Positions 2,828 through 17,319 of a DNA stretch of 64,000 bases are shown here, piece after piece. Origin of the DNA: Patescibacteria group bacterium (GTDB lineage: Bacteria; Patescibacteriota; Minisyncoccia; 2-02-FULL-40-12; GWA2-44-9). The DNA lies in contig JBBTSY010000004.1 of NCBI GenBank assembly GCA_038064515.1, forward strand, positions 32,585-96,584. Reading direction: 5' to 3'. The number at the start of each line of letters is the position of its first letter. The stretch's first letter is position 1. The position numbers were made by a program, and so were the translations under genes. Below the pieces are notes generated by a model that was given only the letters and a program-made list of their open reading frames with translations, was not told the DNA's origin and did no database searches.

Positions 2828-3334
2828 TTAGCGCACGAGCGGAACCCAGTTGCCGATTGCAACACCCATAGCGATGGCCATGCCGCCAATTATGAGCATC
2901 CGCATGCCGCGTGAGAACCAGTGAATCCCGAAATTTCTGGCGCTAAATGCTCCGAGAAGGAAAAGGCTTACCAGAGAAATTACTACTGAAATACCTAACG
3001 GATTTGAGAAAAAAACGTAAGGGGCCAACGGAATTAAACCGGCCAGAATATACGACGCGAACATAATAAACCCGCCAACAATGGCATAATGCAGTGGGAT
3101 TTTCGAATTTCCCGTATATTCCTCCACCGAACGCTCCGAAAGGAAACTTCCGGCCGCCATCGAGAAACCTTCTACGGTGAGCAATACAATGCCGGTAACG
3201 AGAATCGCCGAGCGTTCAACGCCGGAGATGGCGATTCCCGAAAGAAGGCCGACCGTAGAAACCAGGCTGTCTTCCACGCCGAAAATAAGACTGCGAAGAT
3301 ATACCGCGATGCGTTCTCGTGATTGTGCTGGCAT
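2828..3334 (-). CDS. VIT1/CCC1-family iron/manganese transporter
   Basis: 168 aa. The VIT-family pattern EDSLVSTVGLLSGIA plus about 5 TM helices. Confidence 0.65.
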   Translation of the reverse strand: MPAQSRERIAVYLRSLIFGVEDSLVSTVGLLSGIAISGVERSAILVTGIVLLTVEGFSMAAGSFLSERSVEEYTGNSKIPLHYAIVGGFIMFASYILAGLIPLAPYVFFSNPLGISVVISLVSLFLLGAFSARNFGIHWFSRGMRMLIIGGMAIAMGVAIGNWVPLVR

Positions 3335-3405
3335 GCAATAATTCTATCTTAATTCATTGAAAAAACAATGTTTTTATTGTAAACTAATTCAGTTTCGGAG
3401 ATTAT

Positions 3406-3479
3406 TGCGGGATCGTCTAATGGTAGGACATCGCCCTTTGAAGGCGAGTATCTTGGTCCGAATCCAAGTCCCGCAGCCA
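3406..3479 (+). tRNA. tRNA-Gln (anticodon UUG)
   Basis: Cloverleaf by hand. The acceptor stem TGCGGGA/TCCCGCA closes, followed by discriminator G and an encoded CCA. D-arm gtct/ggac. Anticodon stem tcgcc/ggcga with loop cTTTGaa. T-arm cttgg/ccaag with a tccgaat loop (C rather than U at position 55). Confidence 0.75.
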
Positions 3480-3551
3480 AGGTAGGAAGTATCGAGGTGA
3501 CCAAGGTGCCTCGGTTGGCTGCTACCCGCAGCTCTGCCGACAAATTATAAA

Positions 3552-4154
3552 ATGAGGTATCAATTTTTATCTGTAGATCTACAAAATGACTTTGCTTCTG
3601 AAGGTGGCAGTCATTATAAAATCCGACCTTCTATAAACTTCGATAAAGAAGTTCTGTTTCCGTTTCTAAAAGAAAAGGATATTAAAGTCAGCGAGATAAT
3701 TTCCGATTATCGACAACCAAGACCAGGAGATAGGGATGAGAGTTGTGTGCCTGGCACTTGGGGTTATGAATCCATCGTCCCAAAAGAGGTTGTAAAGTCT
3801 CAATGGGTAAAATGCATGAACTCACCGATTTGGACTAGAGACAATATAGGCGATCCAAACAAAATTGCTGGCTTGCCTTACCAAGATACAAAAGGATTTG
3901 GAGAATGGCTGGAAGAGAATATTGGTAAACCAGAAGAAGTAACACCTGTATTATTCGGTCTTACTATTGATTGTTGCGTACTAAGCACCCTTCAGGAGCT
4001 TAGCTGGCGGGGTTATTATCCCTTGGTCTTGAAAGAAGCCGTGGATCATTATCGAGGTACCGAAGAAGCCAAAGAAGCTGTCTTAAAAACACCTATCAAT
4101 AACTGGGCGGATGCAATCACTTGGGACGAACTGAAAGATAAATTGAATGGATAA
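3552..4154 (+). CDS. Isochorismatase-family cysteine hydrolase, paralog A
   Basis: FLSVDLQNDF N-terminal motif and the catalytic-Cys motif GLTIDCCVLST. 200 aa. About 85% aa identical to the ORF at 6623-7225. Confidence 0.75.
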   Translation: MRYQFLSVDLQNDFASEGGSHYKIRPSINFDKEVLFPFLKEKDIKVSEIISDYRQPRPGDRDESCVPGTWGYESIVPKEVVKSQWVKCMNSPIWTRDNIGDPNKIAGLPYQDTKGFGEWLEENIGKPEEVTPVLFGLTIDCCVLSTLQELSWRGYYPLVLKEAVDHYRGTEEAKEAVLKTPINNWADAITWDELKDKLNG

Positions 4155-4884
4155 ACTAAATACAAATAGAGAGGCATGGAATAAAGTAGCTGATCACTTC
4201 TTTTCCCACTCGGCCTTGCCTGTATGGGGGCCTTTTGGAATTGGCAAGAACCAAGATATTATCGGGGCAATTAAAGGTAAAACATTCTTAGAAGTCGGGT
4301 TTGGTAGTGGTCATTCAATTCAGTATTTAGTTAAAAATGGTGCGAAGAAAGTCTGGGGTATAGACATATCAAAAACACAGTTTAACTTTGCCACCAAGCT
4401 TAATAAGAAAGCCATAGAAAATGGAAAGGTTGAATTATTTGAAGTAAACATGGAGAAAAAGTTGAAGTTACCCTTAGTCGATACGGTGTTTTCTATTTAT
4501 GCTTTTGGGTGGACAGTTGATCCAAAGAAATCATTAGTAAACGTATATTCATATCTTAAACCTGGTGGCAAATTTATCTGGAGCTGGGACCATATCTTTT
4601 TTACTGATGTTGAGGATCAGAAAGATAAGTTAGTAGTTCGCTACTCATATCACGATGAACATGAAATTTTTTTGAAGAAGTGGAAAGGTGGAGTGCCAGT
4701 TTATCTAAGGTATCGAAAAACATCGACATGGTTTAAATTAATTAAAGACGCTGGTTTTAATATCGTCGGCTATTTAGAGCCTGCACCAATCATAAAAAAG
4801 GATTTAAGCAGGTCGTATTATACTATTCATAAGGCTAAGCGCGTGCCGTGTTCCATGATTTGGGTGTGCGAGAAACCAAGATAA
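4147..4884 (+). CDS. Class I SAM-dependent methyltransferase (small-molecule type)
   Basis: Motif I LEVGFGSGH and the post-I acidic loop GIDIS. It overlaps the upstream gene by 8 nt, suggesting translational coupling. Confidence 0.7.
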   Translation: MDKLNTNREAWNKVADHFFSHSALPVWGPFGIGKNQDIIGAIKGKTFLEVGFGSGHSIQYLVKNGAKKVWGIDISKTQFNFATKLNKKAIENGKVELFEVNMEKKLKLPLVDTVFSIYAFGWTVDPKKSLVNVYSYLKPGGKFIWSWDHIFFTDVEDQKDKLVVRYSYHDEHEIFLKKWKGGVPVYLRYRKTSTWFKLIKDAGFNIVGYLEPAPIIKKDLSRSYYTIHKAKRVPCSMIWVCEKPR

Positions 4885-5280
4885 AATAATGCCGGAAAAT
4901 TCAACGATAAGATTAAAAATAGTTGGTACCGGGACAAGACCAGGTAGGGGCAGTGCTTTCCCAATTGGGGGAAATCAAATTCTAACCTGTGCCACTTGGG
5001 AGAGTTGAACAATTATCTCATAACCTTCAGAGGAATTTTAAGTAAAACGTCGCAGTCACAAGCTATATGAGACGCTCGGCACCCTTTTTATACTGTTCCA
5101 TTTGTCTCGTTTACCCCGACCGAGGAGTGTCGTAGAATGGAGCCAGCGACCCTCCGAAAGTCCTTGTAACATTCACTCGGGTGGTCACTAGACCCCAGTG
5201 TTCAGCTAATTTGCTCGCCCGCCCTAGCTTTAGTGAAGGAGGGAGCATAGTTCAAGCGACCGAGGGGTATCCGCCCGAAC

Positions 5281-5880
5281 GTGGAAGAATTCATGGAAAC
5301 AACGCCTCAAATTATAGAGACCGCACGAGATCACCACATTCCTGGTATTGTTGCCATTGCGGAGAAGCTCAAAATGAACCCTCAGGAATCGGAGCCCGAG
5401 AAACTGAAGAAAGGGTTTTTGGTCTACACACTTGATGCACGCGGCTATTCGCGTCGATTGAACGAATTCTTTGTTGTTGAAACCAGTGGAGAGCGTGTGG
5501 GCGGTTTTCTCATGTGTTACGACCGCAACTTTATTCAGAGCCTTATTGAGGAAGGGCAAGAAGAGCACGAGCGAGGTATCCTCAACTTTATTCAGTCTGT
5601 AGAGCCCGTGGAAAACTTTGTGTATGGCGGAGAGATTGGTGTTGACCCCAAGGCCCGACAGCAAGGAATTGGCAGAAAAATGCTGGAACGAGTATTTGCC
5701 CTCATGCGCGACAAAGGCATTAGACGCATGTACGCGGCAATTCTGCATGGCCCTGTTCAAAATTTGACATCTATCGCATTCGCCACGGCGACTGGCGCAG
5801 AGAACATAGGCGAGGCGAGAAATGACGATGGATTGCTTTGGGGGCTATACAGATGGTCAGTATCAGAAGACGGGAAATAG
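5281..5880 (+). CDS. GNAT-family N-acetyltransferase
   Basis: Motif A QQGIGRKMLERVFALMRDKGIRRMY. The second ATG at 5293 has the better SD (GGAAG), so the true start may be 5293. Confidence 0.65.
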   Translation: MEEFMETTPQIIETARDHHIPGIVAIAEKLKMNPQESEPEKLKKGFLVYTLDARGYSRRLNEFFVVETSGERVGGFLMCYDRNFIQSLIEEGQEEHERGILNFIQSVEPVENFVYGGEIGVDPKARQQGIGRKMLERVFALMRDKGIRRMYAAILHGPVQNLTSIAFATATGAENIGEARNDDGLLWGLYRWSVSEDGK

Positions 5881-5917
5881 CCCCGACCGAGATATGTCGA
5901 TTTGATAGAATAAAAAT

Positions 5918-6595
5918 ATGAAAATAGTCGTTATAACCGGAGCTAGTCGGGGAATCGGATTGGCCACCGCCAAGAAGTTTTTAGCTGAAGAGTGGCGAGT
6001 TATCGGCACATATTGGCATACGCCAGTTTCACTCAATGCGCCGAATTTTGTTGCAGTGAAAATGAATCAGGGCAACTTCGAAAGCATTGCCCAGGCTGTG
6101 GATGCGATCAAAGCACACACGCAGAGCATTGATGTGTTAGTGAACAACGCAGGAATCAACCCCGATGGTCGTGATGAGGGAGTAAATTTGAAAAAAATCC
6201 GTGAGACATTTGATGTGAATCTTTTCGGCCTCATTGATATAACGGAGCGCCTTCTTCCGGCTATGACCGCAGGAAGTCACGTCGTGAACATTGATTCTAA
6301 CTACGGGGCGTTCTCTTTTCCTATTGATGACAATACCGCAGTGGGCTACCGTCTCTCTAAGACTGCCCTGAATATGTATACGCGAACGTTGGCATTTCGT
6401 CTCCAAGAGAAAGGCATCGTCGTATCCTCACTTGATCCCGGTTGGGTGAAGACGGATATGGGCATGAGTGTGTCTAGCACGACAGAACAACCCGACCGTG
6501 AGCCGGAACAGCCAGCCCAAGAAATTTATACTCTCGTAACAACCATCACCGAATCGGGATGCTTCTGGAAATTCGGTAAAAAACGCGAATGGTAA
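5918..6595 (+). CDS. Short-chain dehydrogenase/reductase (SDR)
   Basis: TGASRGIG cofactor motif, NNAG, and the catalytic YRLSK (YxxxK). Confidence 0.85.
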   Translation: MKIVVITGASRGIGLATAKKFLAEEWRVIGTYWHTPVSLNAPNFVAVKMNQGNFESIAQAVDAIKAHTQSIDVLVNNAGINPDGRDEGVNLKKIRETFDVNLFGLIDITERLLPAMTAGSHVVNIDSNYGAFSFPIDDNTAVGYRLSKTALNMYTRTLAFRLQEKGIVVSSLDPGWVKTDMGMSVSSTTEQPDREPEQPAQEIYTLVTTITESGCFWKFGKKREW

Positions 6596-6622
6596 TAGTG
6601 GGCAAGACGAAACAATAATTGT

Positions 6623-7225
6623 ATGAACTACCAATTTCTTTCAGTAGACCTACAAAATGATTTTGCTACTGAAGATGGTAAGCATTATAAAGTCCGACCC
6701 TCAATAAACTTTGATAAAGAAGTTCTTTTTCCGTTCCTCAAAGAAAAAAATATTAAGATTGGCGAGATAATTTCTGATTATCGCCAGCCTAGACCAGGAG
6801 ATAAAGATGAAAGTTGTGTCCCCGGAACATGGGGTTATGAATCAATCGTTCCGGAAGAGATTGTTAAATCTCAATGGATCAAATGCATGAATTCGCCGAT
6901 TTGGGTACGAGAAAATATCGGTGACCCAAATAAAACGGCAGGGTTGCCATATCAAGATACTAAAGCATTTGGGGAATGGCTGGATAAGAATTTAGGCAAA
7001 CCCGAAGAAATTACCCCAGTCCTTTTCGGCCTCACCATTGATTGCTGTGTGTTAAGCACACTCCAGGAGCTTAATTGGCGAGGATACTACCCGCTTGTAC
7101 TCAAAGAAGCAGTCGACCATTATCAGGGCACGGAAGAAGATAAGGAAGCAGTTTTGAAGACACCCGTTAATAATTGGGCGGAGGTAGTTGTTTGGGAAAA
7201 ATTGAAAAGTAAAATAAGGCAATAG
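6623..7225 (+). CDS. Isochorismatase-family cysteine hydrolase, paralog B
   Basis: Same motifs as paralog A. The DNA is about 80% identical with mostly synonymous differences, so both copies are intact and under selection. Confidence 0.75.
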   Translation: MNYQFLSVDLQNDFATEDGKHYKVRPSINFDKEVLFPFLKEKNIKIGEIISDYRQPRPGDKDESCVPGTWGYESIVPEEIVKSQWIKCMNSPIWVRENIGDPNKTAGLPYQDTKAFGEWLDKNLGKPEEITPVLFGLTIDCCVLSTLQELNWRGYYPLVLKEAVDHYQGTEEDKEAVLKTPVNNWAEVVVWEKLKSKIRQ

Positions 7226-7303
7226 TTGTGCTCTTACTCCGTCGTACTATAATAAGGGTAGTACGTTAACCCTGTTCCTATGATTATTGGAGGAATTCAA
7301 CTC

Positions 7304-8101
7304 ATGAAGGCGATTTTGATGTATTTGGTGCCGGTGAGCATCATTTTTGTTGCGCCGCCCGTGTCATCGCCTAGCGCGTCGCCAACACCGACAAGCATTG
7401 TGTCACCGATTGAAGATGTGCGCTTGGCATACGTTCAGCGCCAGCTGATCAACTCTGGTTTTGAGGAGGAAAAAGTAAATCAAATCCTCACTGATAGTCG
7501 TCGTGAAATCCTTCCGGAAAAGAGCGTCGCCTACCGCGCACCTAACTGGACGCTGATCAAGCGGAAGATCTACGCGCCTGGTTTCGTCCTGCGGGGGAAA
7601 GACTTCATCGCCGCCAATCCGGAAGCCTTCGACAACATGCGGGAGAGTGGCGTGCCCAAGGAGATCGTCGCGGGCATCATCGCCATCGAAACGGAATTCG
7701 GCAAGAACACCGGCAATACGCCCACGTTTAATGCCATCTACTCGCGCCTGAACCACAAGAAGAGCACTGAAAACTGGCGCTTGGAAGCTGAACGGCTGGC
7801 CGCGCTTTCGAAGTACTGCCTGCGATCCAATCTCGACTGCTACAACATCAAAGGTTCCTACGCTGGCGCGATGGGCATTGTGCAATTCATGCCCGACTCG
7901 CTCATGGATTACGGCGTCGACGGGAACGGCGATGCCTTCGTTGATCTTCAGAATCCCGAAGATGCGGTTCCGAGCGCGGCAAACTTCCTGATAGCCCACG
8001 GTTGGAAACAAGACCAGTACAAAGCGCTCACGCGCTACTACGGCAATCCCGTCGGGTATCCCGAGATTGTTCTCCACTACGCTACGCTCCTGGCAAGGTA
8101 G
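7304..8101 (+). CDS. Lytic murein transglycosylase (MltB/Slt-type), signal-anchored
   Basis: GAMGIVQFMP motif. N-terminal hydrophobic anchor plus a Pro/Ser-rich linker. A TATAAT box at about 7250 and a GGAGG SD precede the ATG at 7304. The gene is visibly more GC-rich than its neighbours. Confidence 0.7.
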   Translation: MKAILMYLVPVSIIFVAPPVSSPSASPTPTSIVSPIEDVRLAYVQRQLINSGFEEEKVNQILTDSRREILPEKSVAYRAPNWTLIKRKIYAPGFVLRGKDFIAANPEAFDNMRESGVPKEIVAGIIAIETEFGKNTGNTPTFNAIYSRLNHKKSTENWRLEAERLAALSKYCLRSNLDCYNIKGSYAGAMGIVQFMPDSLMDYGVDGNGDAFVDLQNPEDAVPSAANFLIAHGWKQDQYKALTRYYGNPVGYPEIVLHYATLLAR

Positions 8102-8102
8102 C

Positions 8103-8139
8103 AAGAGCATCGCCGTTCGCGATGCTCTTTCGTTTTTTT
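8103..8139. terminator. Bidirectional rho-independent terminator between the convergent mltB-like and DUF167 genes
   Basis: AAGAGCATCGC-cgttc-GCGATGCTCTT followed by tcgttttttt. Confidence 0.7.
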
Positions 8140-8144
8140 GATTT

Positions 8145-8354
8145 TTATTGCACTTCAACCACTTTGCGGCGAGAGGTAGTGCCGGAGATAATTCGTACGT
8201 GATCGTGGGGAACACCGAAGTATTCGGCAATCTTTTCAACTACTTCATCATTCGCCCGTCCCTGCTCCGGCGTCGAACGCACACCGACGGTAATTTTGTC
8301 GCCGTCGACGGTGATAAAATCCTGTTTTATTTTAACATGCACAAAATACCGCAT
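8145..8354 (-). CDS. DUF167 (YggU-like) small protein
   Basis: 69 aa, matching the UPF0235/DUF167 pattern. Confidence 0.55.
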   Translation of the reverse strand: MRYFVHVKIKQDFITVDGDKITVGVRSTPEQGRANDEVVEKIAEYFGVPHDHVRIISGTTSRRKVVEVQ

Positions 8355-10368: not shown

Positions 10369-10722
10369 CTATTCGTAGCGCAGGGCACGGATCGGATCGA
10401 GGCGGCTGGCTTTGAGAGATGGGAGCGCGCCGGCAATAAGTGCCAACGCGATGCCACCAGCAAGGATGCCCAGGAACGGCAAGATAGGAAAGGCGAGCAG
10501 TTGAAAGCCGACGAAGTCTTTCAGGAAGGTGTTCGTGGCAACACGATTACCTATCAAGCCAATGATGATACTAGAACCAATGCCGAGAGCTGAACCCCAG
10601 AAGCCGATACTCGCCGCTTCCAGAGAAAAAATAGTAAAAATCGTGCGGCGGTTGGCGCCGAGCGCTTTCATGAGTCCGATCTCCGAAGTTCGTTCGTTAA
10701 CTGCGTTTCTACTCATTGTCAA
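10369..10722 (-). pseudogene. C-terminal remnant (TM3-TM4) of an FtsX/MacB-type ABC-transporter permease
   Basis: Carries RTSEIGLMKALGA and the C-terminal ASRLDPIRALRYE FtsX-domain motifs. Only 117 aa remain. There is no room upstream for TM1, the extracytoplasmic domain or TM2, because the M23 gene starts 39 nt away on the other strand. Confidence 0.6.
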
Positions 10723-12963: not shown

Positions 12964-13410
12964 ATGTTCATGGATAAATTCATTGAGCAGTTGGATCTGT
13001 ATTTTGGTAAGAAGGCGCCTCAATTACCAAGGGGCATTAAGGAGTTCCTCGTCAAAATCGCACCATACTTAGCAATAATTAGTGTCGCTCTCTTTGCTAT
13101 TAGTATCTTTCCCCTTCTCACTGCCGGTTTCGGCTCTCTAGGCGCGGTTGGATATTACGGCGCTGGATTCTCGAGAACAGGCTTATTTGTCCACTTGATA
13201 GTGTCGGTTATTGTTTCGGTAATCTACCTTATGGCCATTCCGGGGCTCTTCAAAAGATCAATTCGCTCCTGGAACCTCATCTTCTATGCAACACTTATTA
13301 CCGCCATTGGTAGTTTACTTACTTTCAGTATTGCCAGTCTTATCCTCGGTCTACTCATCGGATTCTATGTGTTGTTTCAGGTTCGAACATACTATACGGG
13401 ACAACACTAA
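12964..13410 (+). CDS. Hypothetical 4-TM membrane protein
   Basis: Hydrophobicity pattern only. Confidence 0.4.
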   Translation: MFMDKFIEQLDLYFGKKAPQLPRGIKEFLVKIAPYLAIISVALFAISIFPLLTAGFGSLGAVGYYGAGFSRTGLFVHLIVSVIVSVIYLMAIPGLFKRSIRSWNLIFYATLITAIGSLLTFSIASLILGLLIGFYVLFQVRTYYTGQH

Positions 13411-14336
13411 AGTCCCCAGACTAAAACATGCGTGAGGTCTAGCAGATTAAAATATTTTTGATAAGCTGTGAACAGTTTATCATCCTTTTCCCCAAGAGTA
13501 TGGCCTTTAGCTCTCGAATAGATATCTAAAAAATTAGTCTCTTTAAGAGAAGAGCAAAGCCTTGCCACATCCCAAAGGTAGTTTCTAAACCCGACACTTC
13601 CAAAGTCAAGAAATGCAATTCTCTTGTCCGCCGTAAGGATAAAATTTGACGGGTTAAAATCACCGTGACTAAGAACTTTGCTAAGGCCGATTTCTGGTTC
13701 CGCAATTTGATCTAATTCTTTACATACTTCTATAAATTGACTGTGTATAAATTGAGAGCGAGGGTGCTGCTGTTTTTCTAAAATACTAATATTCTTATTC
13801 AAATCCGCAAAATTAGCCCTCGCTTCATATTCAAAACTGGGCAGGATTTTAATTTTTTGAAACTCAATCAGGCTAAGCGCCAAAGGTTCGGCAATGTTAT
13901 CAGGCAGTCCATTCTCCTGCTTAATAATTTGTCCCAACGTTTCACCTTCAACATATTCTCGAAGATATAAGCCGTGCGATTGAATAAATACATATGATTT
14001 CGGTATTTTTAAAAACCGGGCTGGATTTTTTGAAAGTTCGGTCGTAATAGATTTTCCAATTTCGTAATCTCTCTTCTTTTTAAGCGTAGGGTGAGCTGAA
14101 GCAAAAATCTTTTTGACAGTGATATCGCCATCAAAAGTCTTGATCTTTAGTTTATAAACGGCGACAAGACTAAAACTTTCAGAATCAAGATAAGTCTTTA
14201 TTGGCTTTATTCTCACTTCTAAAATCTCACCGAGATCTCCGATAGTTTTGATGTAGCCCTGCAGTATTTTTCTTACTTTAGTGCCATTAAGGAGCCCATT
14301 GAGCTTATCTTCATTAATATTCATTAAAAAAGTCAA
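13407..14336 (-). CDS. Phosphotransferase-family kinase (APH/choline-kinase fold)
   Basis: HGDFNPSNFIL catalytic loop and the DFG motif. It is adjacent to the alpha-glucan genes. Confidence 0.6.
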   Translation of the reverse strand: MTFLMNINEDKLNGLLNGTKVRKILQGYIKTIGDLGEILEVRIKPIKTYLDSESFSLVAVYKLKIKTFDGDITVKKIFASAHPTLKKKRDYEIGKSITTELSKNPARFLKIPKSYVFIQSHGLYLREYVEGETLGQIIKQENGLPDNIAEPLALSLIEFQKIKILPSFEYEARANFADLNKNISILEKQQHPRSQFIHSQFIEVCKELDQIAEPEIGLSKVLSHGDFNPSNFILTADKRIAFLDFGSVGFRNYLWDVARLCSSLKETNFLDIYSRAKGHTLGEKDDKLFTAYQKYFNLLDLTHVLVWGL

Positions 14337-15827
14337 TTATCCTCTTTGTTCAGGCTGGCCGCCGCGAATTTCCCGATACTTTTGTTTATATTTTCCAATT
14401 ATTTCCTCGACTTCATAGTTCGGAATCTCTAGGCGTAAAAGGTCAATTGCATGCAAAGTGTCATAAATATCGGATTTATTCTCTATTTTCCAGACCGCAT
14501 CCCGCCATAAAATAGCTTTTTCATATTCACTCCTGTTTGCTGCTTCTTTTTCCAAACGTTTAAGCATATCGATAAAAGCATGATATTTTATTGCTTCTTC
14601 TCCCCCCTGCTCGAGGGTTCTTTCTTTAAAAGGTATGCGGTTTATGTTTTCTCTGGCATGAAGTATGTTGTAGATTTTCCCGCTCTCCTTCCATTGGAAA
14701 GCAGTAGAAATAATCTTTTCATACAAAAACGACGCTTTTTCCGTTGTATCATGGCTGATTCCGGGAATATTTTTTATAACCGAATGACACAATACGGCTC
14801 CGCGCACAATCTCCTCTAGGCTCCACCATGGTTTTCCCGATGCCCACCAAAACTGGTCGCTTGATAGAGCTTTGTCCAATGTCTTGCGTATTTCTTGATA
14901 ACCGGGATGCTCCTTGTCCATGGCATACACGCTACTTACGGCAAGGTCGACAAGATCCCGCTGCCAATGATGAATCTCGTTTTCGGGATCGTCCCAAGAT
15001 AAAAATTGAATACCTTTTTTAATATCTTCTTCGCTTGATGCCCAAGTTGATTTTACGGGCCTAACTTCCTGCGTATCAGGATACAAATCAAGCAAATCTG
15101 AAACTTTGACTAAATCAAGTTCCGGTGTTTGAAAAAACTCAAACAACATCTTATCAAGTCCAGGTCGATGATGACCGAAGGTTTCACCATCCATGCCGGT
15201 AAGCAAGTAGTGATTTTTTTTCAAATCGTCCCTAAAAACTTCTTTGAAAGACTCAAAGGATCGTACCGCTGCGCTCATAATTAAGTTACTTGGGCCTCTT
15301 TCCCTAAAGAATACCGAGAGATCGGTTCCTTTAATTTTATATGTCTTATTATAATCAACCTGACCAGTTTTACCGTTGTAAGCGATTTCATCTATAATAA
15401 TCCACTTGTAGCCAAACTGCTGAACTATGGGAACTATTTTTTCATCATAGGCCATTTCTGGAGGGAAAAATCCCTCCGGCCGATAGTGGTTATCTATATA
15501 AAATTTAAGGGTGGATTCATTTTCTTCAATCTGCCTTATTATTTCTTGCTCGGATAGAAATGGAAGGAGAGCGTGGTATTTAGCCGAACCGGTGAGTTCA
15601 AGTCGGCCTCCTTTTACAAGATCACGTATTATCTCAATTAAATCCCAGTATCCATGAGCATCAAACATTTCCAAAAGCACACCACTTATATTCATTGTTA
15701 GTCTGGTCCTTTGATTTTTTTTGACACCTTCTAAAATAGGACGATAACTCTGGACTACTACAGCCTCAAGAATATCCGGCTGTTGTCCAGCCGGCTGGTA
15801 TATATGTAGAAAATTAGCCCACTTCAT
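14337..15827 (-). CDS. Glycoside hydrolase family 57 (alpha-glucan-active)
   Basis: NFLHIYQP (HQP-type) N-terminus and GRLELTGSAKYHALLPFL. Confidence 0.7.
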   Translation of the reverse strand: MKWANFLHIYQPAGQQPDILEAVVVQSYRPILEGVKKNQRTRLTMNISGVLLEMFDAHGYWDLIEIIRDLVKGGRLELTGSAKYHALLPFLSEQEIIRQIEENESTLKFYIDNHYRPEGFFPPEMAYDEKIVPIVQQFGYKWIIIDEIAYNGKTGQVDYNKTYKIKGTDLSVFFRERGPSNLIMSAAVRSFESFKEVFRDDLKKNHYLLTGMDGETFGHHRPGLDKMLFEFFQTPELDLVKVSDLLDLYPDTQEVRPVKSTWASSEEDIKKGIQFLSWDDPENEIHHWQRDLVDLAVSSVYAMDKEHPGYQEIRKTLDKALSSDQFWWASGKPWWSLEEIVRGAVLCHSVIKNIPGISHDTTEKASFLYEKIISTAFQWKESGKIYNILHARENINRIPFKERTLEQGGEEAIKYHAFIDMLKRLEKEAANRSEYEKAILWRDAVWKIENKSDIYDTLHAIDLLRLEIPNYEVEEIIGKYKQKYREIRGGQPEQRG

Positions 15828-17319
15828 CTATTTTTTCTTTATGGAATCTCAGCGCCATTTCAAAAAGTTTCATATATTCGGCAGCGGATTTCTTCCAAGA
15901 AAAATCTTGAGTCATAGCGCTTTTAATAATCTTGGACCAGAAATTCTTTTGGCGATAAATTTGATATGCCCTGACCATGGCAATGGTAAGAGAAAACGGA
16001 TCGAATTTTTCAAACACAAAACCAGTTCCTTTGCCTGTTTCAGGATTAAAATCCTCAACTGAATCAGCAAGACCGCCCACCTTACGGACTATGGGTATGG
16101 CCCCGTAGCGCATCGCCTCCATCTGAACCAAACCGCAAGGTTCAGATTTGGAAGGCAACAGAACCACATCAGCACCACCAAGAACAAGCCTGGTCAAACG
16201 GGAATCAAATGCAAAATGTACGCCCACCCTATCCGGGTATTTTTTCTTTAAATCTTCAAAGAATAAACGATATTGAGGGTTACCTTCGCCAGTCACGATA
16301 AGTTGCAAATCTAAATTTTGCATAAATTGATCCAGCATTTGGATTAAGATATCGAAACCTTTTTGTTCGTCCATGCGAGAGACAATACCGGCAACAAATC
16401 TGTTTTCATTAACTTCAATCCCAAACTGTTTTTGAAGAACTATCTTATTTTCCTTCTTTTTCTCAATAGTCTTGGAGTTGTAATTAACATCCAAGTCTGG
16501 ATCTGTTTCTGGATTAAGGGAATCTACATCGATACCGTTTAAAATTCCAAATAAGCGGCTTTTTCTTTCATTCAGAAGTTTATCTAAATGGTTACCAAAT
16601 TCTTCAGAAAGAATTTCTTTTGAATACGTGGGCGATACTGTATTAATCACATCCGCATAAAATATGCCCCTCTTCATCCCATTTAGTTTTATTATTCTCT
16701 CATGAGGGATGGACGGTATAGGTTGCTGACCATCATCATAGTCCATTTCGCTGACAAACTGGGGATCAAACATTCCTTGATATCTAAGATTATGAATTGA
16801 AAATACTGTTGTTATGTCCTTTAAAACTGGGTCGTTTTTGTATTCAGTATGCAGATAATTTGGAATAAAACCGGCCTGCCAGTCGCAAGCCACAATTATG
16901 TCAGGTTTCCACTCTGAATGCTTTAAAAATTCAAGAACTCCTTTGGACAAAAGAACCCATCGGATAGTATCGTCTCCATAACCGTAAACATTGGCTCTTT
17001 TTTCGTAGTACTCCATATTTTCAAGGAAATAGGTAACGCCTCCGTTCTCTTCACTTTTTAGAACATTTGAAGTTAAAATACCATGTGGATCGGTTTCGGG
17101 AGTGCCTAAATTAAGACCCTTCAACTCTAAGGTCATATTATACTTTTCTGCATCAATGCTTGCATACTTAGGGACCATTACTCTTGCATCACACCCCAGA
17201 TCCCTAAGAGCTTTGGGCAAAGAATACATAATCTCGCCTAACCCGCCAACTTTCACGAACGGGGCTGCTTCAGATGCAACAAACAGAATTTTATATCCGG
17301 TAGTTTTAGGAAGATTCAT
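15814..17319 (-). CDS. glgA: Glycogen/starch synthase (GT5)
   Basis: KVGGLGEIM motif. 501 aa. Confidence 0.85.
   Translation of the reverse strand: MNLPKTTGYKILFVASEAAPFVKVGGLGEIMYSLPKALRDLGCDARVMVPKYASIDAEKYNMTLELKGLNLGTPETDPHGILTSNVLKSEENGGVTYFLENMEYYEKRANVYGYGDDTIRWVLLSKGVLEFLKHSEWKPDIIVACDWQAGFIPNYLHTEYKNDPVLKDITTVFSIHNLRYQGMFDPQFVSEMDYDDGQQPIPSIPHERIIKLNGMKRGIFYADVINTVSPTYSKEILSEEFGNHLDKLLNERKSRLFGILNGIDVDSLNPETDPDLDVNYNSKTIEKKKENKIVLQKQFGIEVNENRFVAGIVSRMDEQKGFDILIQMLDQFMQNLDLQLIVTGEGNPQYRLFFEDLKKKYPDRVGVHFAFDSRLTRLVLGGADVVLLPSKSEPCGLVQMEAMRYGAIPIVRKVGGLADSVEDFNPETGKGTGFVFEKFDPFSLTIAMVRAYQIYRQKNFWSKIIKSAMTQDFSWKKSAAEYMKLFEMALRFHKEKIDEVG

Follow-up and report, generated by a model that had tools for sequence, protein, structure and literature searches.

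Two diverged isochorismatase-like hydrolase genes in a probably strain-variable region beside a tRNA-Gln gene of a groundwater patescibacterium

The DNA considered here is a window of 64,000 nucleotides (nt), that is, the whole stretch that was analysed, from contig JBBTSY010000004.1 of the assembly GCA_038064515.1 (positions 32,585 to 96,584). The source is a metagenome-assembled genome (MAG) of a Patescibacteria group bacterium, a tiny groundwater member of the Candidate Phyla Radiation (CPR). The region of interest, at window positions 3552-7225, carries five genes and a non-coding gap of 408 nt, all read on the plus strand, in the order hydA, methyltransferase (MT), gap, GNAT, SDR, hydB. 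The two hyd genes are paralogous cysteine hydrolases. In a preliminary description, the five genes had been viewed as a co-functional module kept in duplicate. The analysis favours a different account, in which the locus is probably an accessory region with contents that vary between strains. Its features are as follows, with flanks and anchors named according to that account.

2828-3334, minus strand: VIT1-family gene (Pfam VIT1, 2.4e-24), conserved left flank
3406-3479, plus strand: tRNA-Gln(TTG) gene (ARAGORN and Rfam, 60.8 bits), proposed left anchor
3552-4154, plus strand: hydA, isochorismatase-like cysteine hydrolase, paralog A (weak PF00857 match and predicted structure; GC 0.40, GC at third codon positions (GC3) 0.33)
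4147-4884, plus strand: class I S-adenosylmethionine (SAM)-dependent methyltransferase, MT (Pfam Methyltransf_11/25/12/31/23; Methyltransf_11 1e-13)
4885-5292, plus strand: non-coding gap without any family-matching open reading frame (ORF), between a low-GC block and a block of host-like GC
5106-5206, plus strand: conserved non-coding element within the gap, 87% identical to positions 1304-1404 of the metagenome contig L106
5293-5880, plus strand: GNAT acetyltransferase (Pfam Acetyltransf_1, 1e-9), the replaceable gene
5881-5911, plus strand: promoter/operator-like motif CCCCGACCGAGATATGTCG and TTTGATAGAAT, ending 6 nt 5′ of the SDR ATG
5918-6595, plus strand: SDR oxidoreductase (Pfam adh_short, 3e-38), proposed right anchor and recombination zone
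6623-7225, plus strand: hydB, isochorismatase-like cysteine hydrolase, paralog B (GC 0.40, GC3 0.36), present in both strain variants
7280-8101, plus strand: SLT_2 lytic transglycosylase (Pfam SLT_2, 1.2e-38), conserved right flank

Both hydrolase genes are intact, encode 200 amino acids (aa) and lie in direct orientation 2,468 nt apart, as the preliminary description had stated (approximately 2.5 kb). The start/stop overlap that it had reported between hydA and MT is also present: the MT start codon (ATG 4147) precedes the end of the hydA stop codon (TAA 4152-4154), giving an overlap of 8 nt. The tRNA-Gln(TTG) gene, located 72 nt 5′ of hydA, had escaped it. The GNAT ORF opens at GTG 5281, with the gene callers taking ATG 5293. 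The five-gene layout recurs at 99.9-100% identity in the independent assemblies L001 (ERR3858120) and L005 (SRR32696710), and is therefore no assembly artefact. On the left, the VIT1-family gene is 99% identical in the contigs L100 and L101, both of which stop at or just beyond the tRNA. On the right, the SLT_2 lytic transglycosylase shows 98-100% protein identity in L001-L004.

The generic labels first given to the enzymes have held: SAM methyltransferase, GNAT, SDR and isochorismatase-like hydrolase are each recovered by Pfam, with the hydrolase fold resting on a predicted structure. Only these generic Pfam labels stand, since none of the five enzymes reached any equivalog cutoff in NCBIfam. 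The preliminary description would have yielded to relatives with the identical five-gene order under housekeeping annotations; such relatives were not found.

The evidence for replacement comes from a co-occurring strain that lacks hydA, MT and GNAT, and carries in their place a foreign tRNA-Gln with DpnI-like and HEPN genes. Two contigs of the same MAG (GCA_964360865.1), L100 and L002, record the junctions. L100 contains the VIT1 flank (99% identical), then 11-13 nt of the 5′ end of the native tRNA-Gln, a new stretch of approximately 150 nt and the beginning of another tRNA. It overlaps L002 by approximately 55 nt, which links L002 to the VIT1 flank. In L002, the sequence goes on to a whole alternative tRNA-Gln(TTG) gene, which matches the native one at 84% identity. 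Next come two protein-coding genes, one for a methyl-directed nuclease resembling DpnI and one for a HEPN protein of the Cthe_2314 type. This cargo is defence-like (mREase_II at 1e-6 in PADLOC; HEPN by Pfam).

Homology of L002 to the window resumes at 5914, 4 nt before the SDR ATG. The SDR allele of the variant (L002/L105) is a mosaic: it is approximately 94-97% identical to the window over 5914-6100, approximately 70% over 6100-6450 and 100% from approximately 6500. Beyond that point, there are 0 mismatches per 100 nt for approximately 2 kb, and hydB is included in this stretch (100% identical in L002). Within the divergent patch, the YxxxK motif is kept, and the allele carries a nonsense codon, Q51*. 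The same order, alternative tRNA, DpnI-like gene, HEPN gene, interrupted SDR gene and hydB, occurs at 99.9% identity in L105, an independent groundwater assembly. In addition, the contigs L001, L003 and L004, from other samples, end precisely at the tRNA and at nt 13 of SDR, as contigs are expected to do where an assembly graph branches. The endpoints of the variant lie in the tRNA and inside the SDR gene, and not in the paralogs. The remnant of the window-type tRNA that persists in the variant marks the latter as the derived state.

It has been noted that an 11-nt direct repeat, TTGCGGGATCG, which is the 5′ end of the tRNA-Gln, flanks the stretch of approximately 150 nt in the variant (L100 1-175 on the reverse strand / L002 1-31). 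This stretch opens with a perfect palindrome, CCTGCCTGCGCAGGCAGG, and holds an ORF of 39 codons. Further along the window, 10400-10700 in an FtsX-like gene shows 8-12 mismatches per 100 nt against L002, which is otherwise 100% identical there; this suggests another recombination tract.

A more distant arrangement is seen in L106. This metagenome contig (Ga0210377_10039756) starts with the 3′ part of a hydA-like gene, 90% identical to hydA and 88% to hydB at the aa level. It is followed by an overlapping DUF5680 gene and then by only the first 52 codons of MT (83% aa identity). Next come the stretch that is 87% identical to 5106-5206, approximately 500 nt of unrelated sequence, a different methyltransferase of 224 aa (MT2) and an SDR gene (74% aa identity). 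The linkage of hydrolase to SDR in this contig indicates that it is older than the species of the window. The intervening genes, by contrast, decay and are replaced, whereas a selected five-step pathway would predict the reverse. At approximately 1440-1800, L106 also carries a near-consensus promoter (TTGACT-17-TATAAT), approximately 270 nt of GC-rich sequence and a hairpin with a T-run. This arrangement resembles a small RNA gene and has no Rfam match.

Homologs of the tRNA-Gln precede different strings of genes, each on the strand of the tRNA, in four sets of related contigs (L096/L097, L098, L006 and L002/L105). In L096/L097, the string consists of an FtsJ-like methyltransferase, further genes, an MT homolog and more genes. 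In L098, it runs through His_Phos_1, MT, DUF5677, TspO, a GATase-family gene, DUF5667, CsoR and CopA, and in L006 through TspO, cupin, a hydrolase of the hyd family, further genes, CsoR and CopA. The last two strings reconverge on TspO, CsoR and CopA (65-83% aa identity).

The reading preferred here, and regarded as probable, is that the locus is a strain-variable accessory region with the tRNA-Gln(TTG) as its left anchor and SDR-hydB as its right anchor. Recombination in the conserved flanks would swap the contents between related lineages, and the five-gene order would be a historical mosaic and no dedicated pathway. In the variant, everything between approximately nt 13 of the tRNA and the centre of the SDR gene, hydA, MT and GNAT included, has been replaced by a foreign segment, which would have been acquired by uptake of foreign DNA. 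This segment comprises the new sequence of approximately 150 nt, the complete tRNA-Gln, the DpnI-like nuclease and HEPN genes and a diverged 5′ part of SDR. From the anatomy of the junctions, the SDR end appears to have been resolved by homologous recombination and the tRNA end by illegitimate joining. The variant would be viable because the incoming DNA supplies its own tRNA-Gln. The two hydrolases would be long-separated copies of a stand-alone and strongly constrained cysteine-hydrolase gene. Transcription is probably divided among three units: tRNA-hydA-MT, GNAT and SDR-hydB.

Such a process is like homology-facilitated illegitimate recombination, which is described in naturally transformable bacteria: one end lies in a homologous, mosaic anchor (SDR), while the other is abrupt, in the tRNA, and lacks extended homology. 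It differs in that the process is here read from the anatomy of the junctions, from which DNA uptake and recombination in the organism are inferred. The locus also resembles the flexible islands found next to tRNA genes. It has a variable string 3′ of a tRNA that differs between strains and related species, conserved flanks, mixed composition and, in one variant, defence-type cargo. Unlike the usual islands of this type, it has no integrase and no direct repeat of the tRNA 3′ end. Moreover, the variant cuts the native tRNA at its 5′ end and brings a complete foreign tRNA, and its right-hand junction is mosaic and intragenic. The locus would provide a junction-level example of gene turnover in a streamlined CPR genome, in which recombination with DNA of related lineages replaces strings of genes and, in one case, the tRNA as well, with no integrase apparently involved. 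It reveals neither a new pathway nor a new type of genetic element, and the arrangement is fairly ordinary.

Several observations weigh against this reading. Neither recombinase nor competence genes were recognised at the locus, and the proposed mode of exchange is deduced only from the junctions. The short metagenomic contigs recovered show only a single replacement variant and a single diverged arrangement. L106 ends inside its SDR gene, short of the place where a hydB-type copy would be expected. The linkage of hydrolase, MT, gap element and SDR is common to L106; part of the arrangement is accordingly old, so that some functional coupling is conceivable. The strain with the interrupted SDR gene (Q51*) is exactly the one without hydA, MT and GNAT, which could hint at functional dependence. 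Composition is of no help in dating any transfer. GC3 is 0.33-0.37 in hydA, MT and hydB and 0.50 in GNAT and SDR (mean of the 52 window ORFs, 0.469 +/- 0.063), and L106 has a similar GC mosaic (hydrolase 0.41, MT2 0.41, gap 0.50, SDR 0.52).

The view that the five genes form one co-functional operon for modification, salvage or detoxification, with the hydrolase step duplicated, is judged improbable. It draws on the common strand, the close spacing and the 8-nt overlap of hydA and MT, as well as on the two points just named, the linkage of hydrolase, MT and SDR common to L106 and the nonsense codon in SDR. Against it stands a survey of 85 other loci of the hydrolase family, with flanks fetched for up to 10 kb on each side and homologs sought by tblastn at 1e-5. 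A homolog of this MT, GNAT or SDR was found at 0 of the 85 loci, as was a second hydrolase copy, so that the families show no co-occurrence of the kind that an operon predicts. The claim of a module kept in duplicate is not supported by this comparison: only the hydrolase is duplicated, and in L106, MT has decayed and GNAT has been replaced while hydrolase and SDR are intact.

The closest relatives of MT and GNAT occur in unrelated contexts. MT belongs to a CPR-wide family with 137 matches, and its closest relatives (86% and 82% aa identity) adjoin other genes, including a 2′,5′-RNA-ligase-like gene and a histidine phosphatase gene, with no hydrolase alongside. GNAT is rare, with only three non-self relatives among 5.8 billion clusters; the relative at 66% identity has no adjoining SDR. 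At the locus itself, GNAT gives way to the 224-aa methyltransferase in L106 and is absent in L002/L105. An operon is further opposed by the 408-nt gap and by the separate promoter-like elements before GNAT and SDR, and no curated pathway family was matched. The overlap of hydA and MT is no sign of functional coupling, as overlaps of 4 nt or similar between the hydrolase and unrelated neighbours are common in other genomes.

The second alternative is that an integrase-mediated island has inserted site-specifically into the tRNA-Gln with hydA, MT and possibly GNAT as its cargo, L002 being a different island at the same attachment site. The position of hydA directly 3′ of the tRNA agrees with this, as does the strain-variable content found beside the tRNA. 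The duplicated 5′ segment of the tRNA flanking approximately 150 nt in the variant also speaks for it, and genes for an integrase and a resolvase are found close to one relative (L013). In addition, the hydrolase family is enriched directly 3′ of tRNA genes. At 5 of 84 loci, the hydrolase lies within 150 nt 3′ of a same-strand tRNA, compared with 10 of 1067 control ORFs, a modest enrichment of approximately 6-fold (Fisher p = 0.003). Members downstream of tRNAs of various identities include L022, L035, L043, L045 and L065 (also L044, L020 and L061); the hydrolase gene of L043 sits within a tRNA cluster.

Nevertheless, an island of this kind is unlikely. No integrase, recombinase or transposase is present among the genes called within approximately 10 kb on each side. 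The 5′ (19-nt) and 3′ (25-nt) segments of the tRNA each occur once in the 64-kb window, with up to three mismatches allowed, and there is no attachment-site repeat. Taken together, these two results disfavour a classical island brought in by an integrase. On the right, the variant grades into the window sequence as a mosaic inside the SDR gene, as is typical of homologous recombination, and not at a sharp attachment site. The hydrolase family was also not found in 2.9 million IMG/VR contigs or in 50,697 GenBank phage records.

The relationship between the paralogs bears on both their origin and their role. At the protein level, 166 of 198 residues are identical (84%, with 94% positives) in an ungapped BLASTP alignment, in agreement with the value of approximately 85% given earlier. 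The DNA identity is slightly lower than the 80% first given: 467 of 603 nt, or 77.4%, and 78.2% over the local BLAST alignment. The differences are mostly synonymous, as had been claimed, with 26, 15 and 95 at codon positions 1, 2 and 3. By the Nei-Gojobori method, the rate of nonsynonymous change (dN) is 0.105 and that of synonymous change (dS) is 2.18, which is saturated, giving a dN/dS of approximately 0.05. This ratio indicates that both genes are under strong purifying selection. As all 39 invariant positions of the family are also kept in both, hydA and hydB are probably both active and share the same chemistry.

The similarity of the paralogs stops exactly at the ORF boundaries, without homology in the flanks. 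The nearest relatives of hydA are P0002 (91%) and P0003 (87%), from non-syntenic genomes, with hydB further away (83%); the nearest relatives of hydB are the same two proteins (85%). The loci that encode them, L006 and L016, have nothing else in common with the 64-kb window (tblastx, 1e-8). Since dS is saturated and hydA is closer to P0002 and P0003 than to hydB, the split between the paralogs is old, and their origin is either an ancient duplication or two separate acquisitions. The preliminary description had also presented the paralogs as a substrate for recombination. This is not supported: the longest identical stretch is 14 nt, RecA-dependent recombination requires well over 20 nt of identity, and the run is thus too short for efficient homologous recombination between them. 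A recent local tandem duplication whose direct repeats drive the gain and loss of the cassette by homologous recombination would fit the direct orientation, equal length and lack of indels, but is very improbable in view of the saturated dS, the 77% nt identity, the 14-nt run, the lack of flank homology, the greater closeness of hydA to non-syntenic genes, the absence of any hybrid hydA/hydB allele among the sequences seen and the different breakpoints, in the tRNA and SDR, of the deletion variant.

As for the hydrolases themselves, their match to PF00857 is borderline. hydA scores 25.3 bits and hydB 26.7 bits, in the C-terminal part only, and both miss the gathering cutoff of 27; a precomputed PF00857 match is present in many homologs. 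An AlphaFold (AF2) model built on 36 homologs had a predicted local distance difference test (pLDDT) score of 94.8 and a predicted template modelling (pTM) score of 0.91. A Foldseek search of the PDB with the predicted structure gave 139 matches at E<=0.001, and the top 50 listed were all of the isochorismatase family with a probability of 1.0. The model thereby confirms a predicted isochorismatase-like fold (Rossmann-like alpha/beta). Matches such as 3hb7, 6a8l/5zn8, 3ot4/3uao, 8bkd, 3eef and 6xjm had template modelling (TM) scores of 0.6-0.7 at 15-21% identity. They comprise PncA, NicF, RutB, carbamoylsarcosine amidase and the biuret/triuret hydrolases, with no subfamily prominent. Sequence searches against the PDB gave weak matches confined to the C-terminal motif.

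No variation occurs at D9, K87 or C142 across 36 diverse members of the family. D9 belongs to a conserved N-terminal (V/I)D(L/I)QN(D/E)F motif that contains the catalytic Asp, and aligns with the Asp of VDxQxDF. C142 lies within G-L-T-x-D-C-C-V, the local form of the conserved G-x-T-x-D-x-C-V Cys motif, and corresponds in alignments to the catalytic Cys of PncA and of BiuH-like amidases. K87 is taken as the Lys of the triad from its invariance and position rather than from a residue-level structural alignment. An Asp-Lys-Cys triad thus appears to be kept. The metal site of PncA consists of one Asp and two or three His (D49, H51, H57 and H71 in M. tuberculosis). In the family alignment, no His N-terminal to residue 166 is invariant or close to it, and an invariant SDYRQPRPGD loop with two Arg stands in place of the Asp/His metal site of the nicotinamidases. 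An hhalign comparison with PncA aligned the Cys motif only. With the triad and without this metal site, the proteins would work like a cysteine amidohydrolase and would fall outside PncA.

The best NCBIfam match of the hydrolases was BiuH (NF050097), at 20.8-21.1 bits against a cutoff of 370, and there were no others. The family assignment that the preliminary description had proposed to make can be carried as far as the fold and the triad; the PncA metal site, the NCBIfam equivalogs and placement in any single subfamily all fail. The hydrolases share the fold, the Asp and Cys motifs and the invariant K87 with the PF00857 superfamily (PncA, NicF, RutB, N-carbamoylsarcosine amidase and biuret/triuret hydrolases). 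They differ from it in their identity of only 15-21% to solved structures, in a score under the cutoff and in the Arg-bearing SDYRQPRPGD loop. Judged from their residues, hydA and hydB probably catalyse the same amide or ester hydrolysis.

A word-indexed search returned 565 clusters (90% identity) at E<=0.001, with the 120 listed being 58-100% identical to hydA. In an exhaustive hidden Markov model (HMM) search of 1.84 billion representatives at 50% identity, 44 matched at E<=1e-30, followed by a wide gap down to generic isochorismatases at E values of approximately 1e-4 to 1e-7. This gap marks the uncharacterised clade as compact and isolated. Relatives were found in 102 stretches among 185,579 species-representative genomes, in a search whose sensitivity was limited by the pattern used. 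The 80 that were kept are 46-87% identical to hydA and, judged by their record titles, fall into the CPR (approximately 40), DPANN and other archaea (approximately 20), Thermoplasmatota (approximately 10) and Proteobacteria (approximately 4), with approximately 6 doubtfully labelled. As the gene is rare, patchy and highly conserved across domains, it is inferred to be a horizontally exchanged accessory gene under strong constraint. Two copies occur in only one assembly among the 80, on separate contigs (L024 and L030).

The Pfam-annotated neighbourhoods differ in each relative examined. When neighbours within 4 kb were clustered, the top family was present at only 6 of the 85 loci, and there is no strong partner. 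The only recurrent immediate neighbour is DUF5680, which often overlaps the hydrolase stop codon. It is found next to the hydrolase at 5 of the 85 loci (L011, L019, L032, L040 and L042), and also in L106 (437-907) and L112 (727-1197). NUDIX genes lie near the hydrolase at six loci, and at four more there is a possibly NUDIX-like family. The order in L112 is hydrolase-DUF5680-NUDIX-NUDIX. These neighbours are a possible lead to nucleotide or NAD-related metabolism. No relevant literature was found on isochorismatases in CPR or DPANN, on tRNA-linked islands or horizontal gene transfer, or on nicotinamidase in Patescibacteria.

It may be speculated, though the proposal is doubtful, that the distinct clade formed by the hydrolases represents a novel deamidase or amidase, the substrate of which would be an amide of anionic, nucleotide-like or pyridine-nucleotide type. 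If this were true, ultra-small symbionts might use the enzyme for cofactor or nucleotide salvage, exchange between domains would be possible, and two diverged copies would be kept under strong purifying selection because the activity matters. The clade is sharply delimited and common to CPR, DPANN and Thermoplasmatota at 46-90% identity, and could represent a salvage enzyme relevant to symbiosis.

In the 408-nt gap (4885-5292), nothing matched Rfam (E<=1), no ORF belongs to a recognised family, and folding gave no structure signal (z-score 0.02). The element at 5106-5206 is more strongly conserved against L106 than the flanking coding sequence, which is 72-81% identical. It opens with a promoter-like TTTACC-17 nt-TAGAAT (5110-5138), the spacer of which is CCCCGACCGAGGAGTGTCG and bears a CCCCGACCGAG..TGTCG motif. 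The 16-mer GGTGGTCACTAGACCC was found only in this element and in L106. A consensus fold of 77 nt from the two sequences has an energy of -10.5 kcal/mol, with no compensatory pairs and no covariation. A scan of 3300-7400 for promoters and terminators gave 6 promoter-like sites against 7.7 expected, so that the site at 5110-5138 is not above chance by itself.

The sequence CGACCGAG is present only three times in the 64-kb window (5117, 5257 and 5884), each time on the plus strand and around GNAT. Copies of CCCCGACCGAG..TGTCG are located in the window at 5114-5132, 5257-5271 and 5881-5899, in L106 at approximately 2597 and in L107 at 7931. The replaceable gene, GNAT, is thus bracketed by copies of the motif. 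The copy at 5881 together with TTTGATAGAAT, which holds a TAGAAT box (5906-5911) approximately 6 nt before the SDR ATG, is kept upstream of the SDR orthologs in L106 and in L107/L108, the latter at 58% aa identity. This suggests that SDR and GNAT have their own promoter- or operator-like regions. For the CCGACCGAG..TGTCG motif, a role as operator, promoter spacer or recombination site is conceivable. There is a likeness to integron-type cassettes in that CCCCGACCGAG..TGTCG copies enclose one exchangeable gene, which is GNAT here and a methyltransferase in L106. However, there is no IntI-type integrase nearby and only one cassette position. Furthermore, the attC site of integrons is an imperfect palindrome of 60-140 nt, whereas the motif here is approximately 19 nt long and coincides with promoter-like -10 boxes.

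PADLOC made no defence-system assignment for the window genes. hydA and SDR had no matches, MT matched a generic methyltransferase domain only (mad2, 5e-15), and GNAT matched at 0.002. Rfam returned tRNAs only, in the whole window (gathering threshold), in 4800-5950 (E<=1) and in L105/L106 (E<=0.1). Low GC3 was considered as a sign of recent transfer and rejected, since the same mosaic occurs in L106 and the hydrolase is also low in GC within a locus of higher GC.

At the right flank, two long ORFs overlap on opposite strands, 7280-8101 (plus) and 7403-8239 (minus), and of these only the former matches a family (SLT_2). The latter, of 235 aa and without a Pfam match, is chosen in some public gene calls, and is probably a mis-call. 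A second low-GC block consists of three consecutive minus-strand ORFs at window positions 13407-17319 (GC 0.36-0.40, GC3 0.33-0.37). It is as atypical as hydA, MT and hydB, and may be another acquired or variable region.

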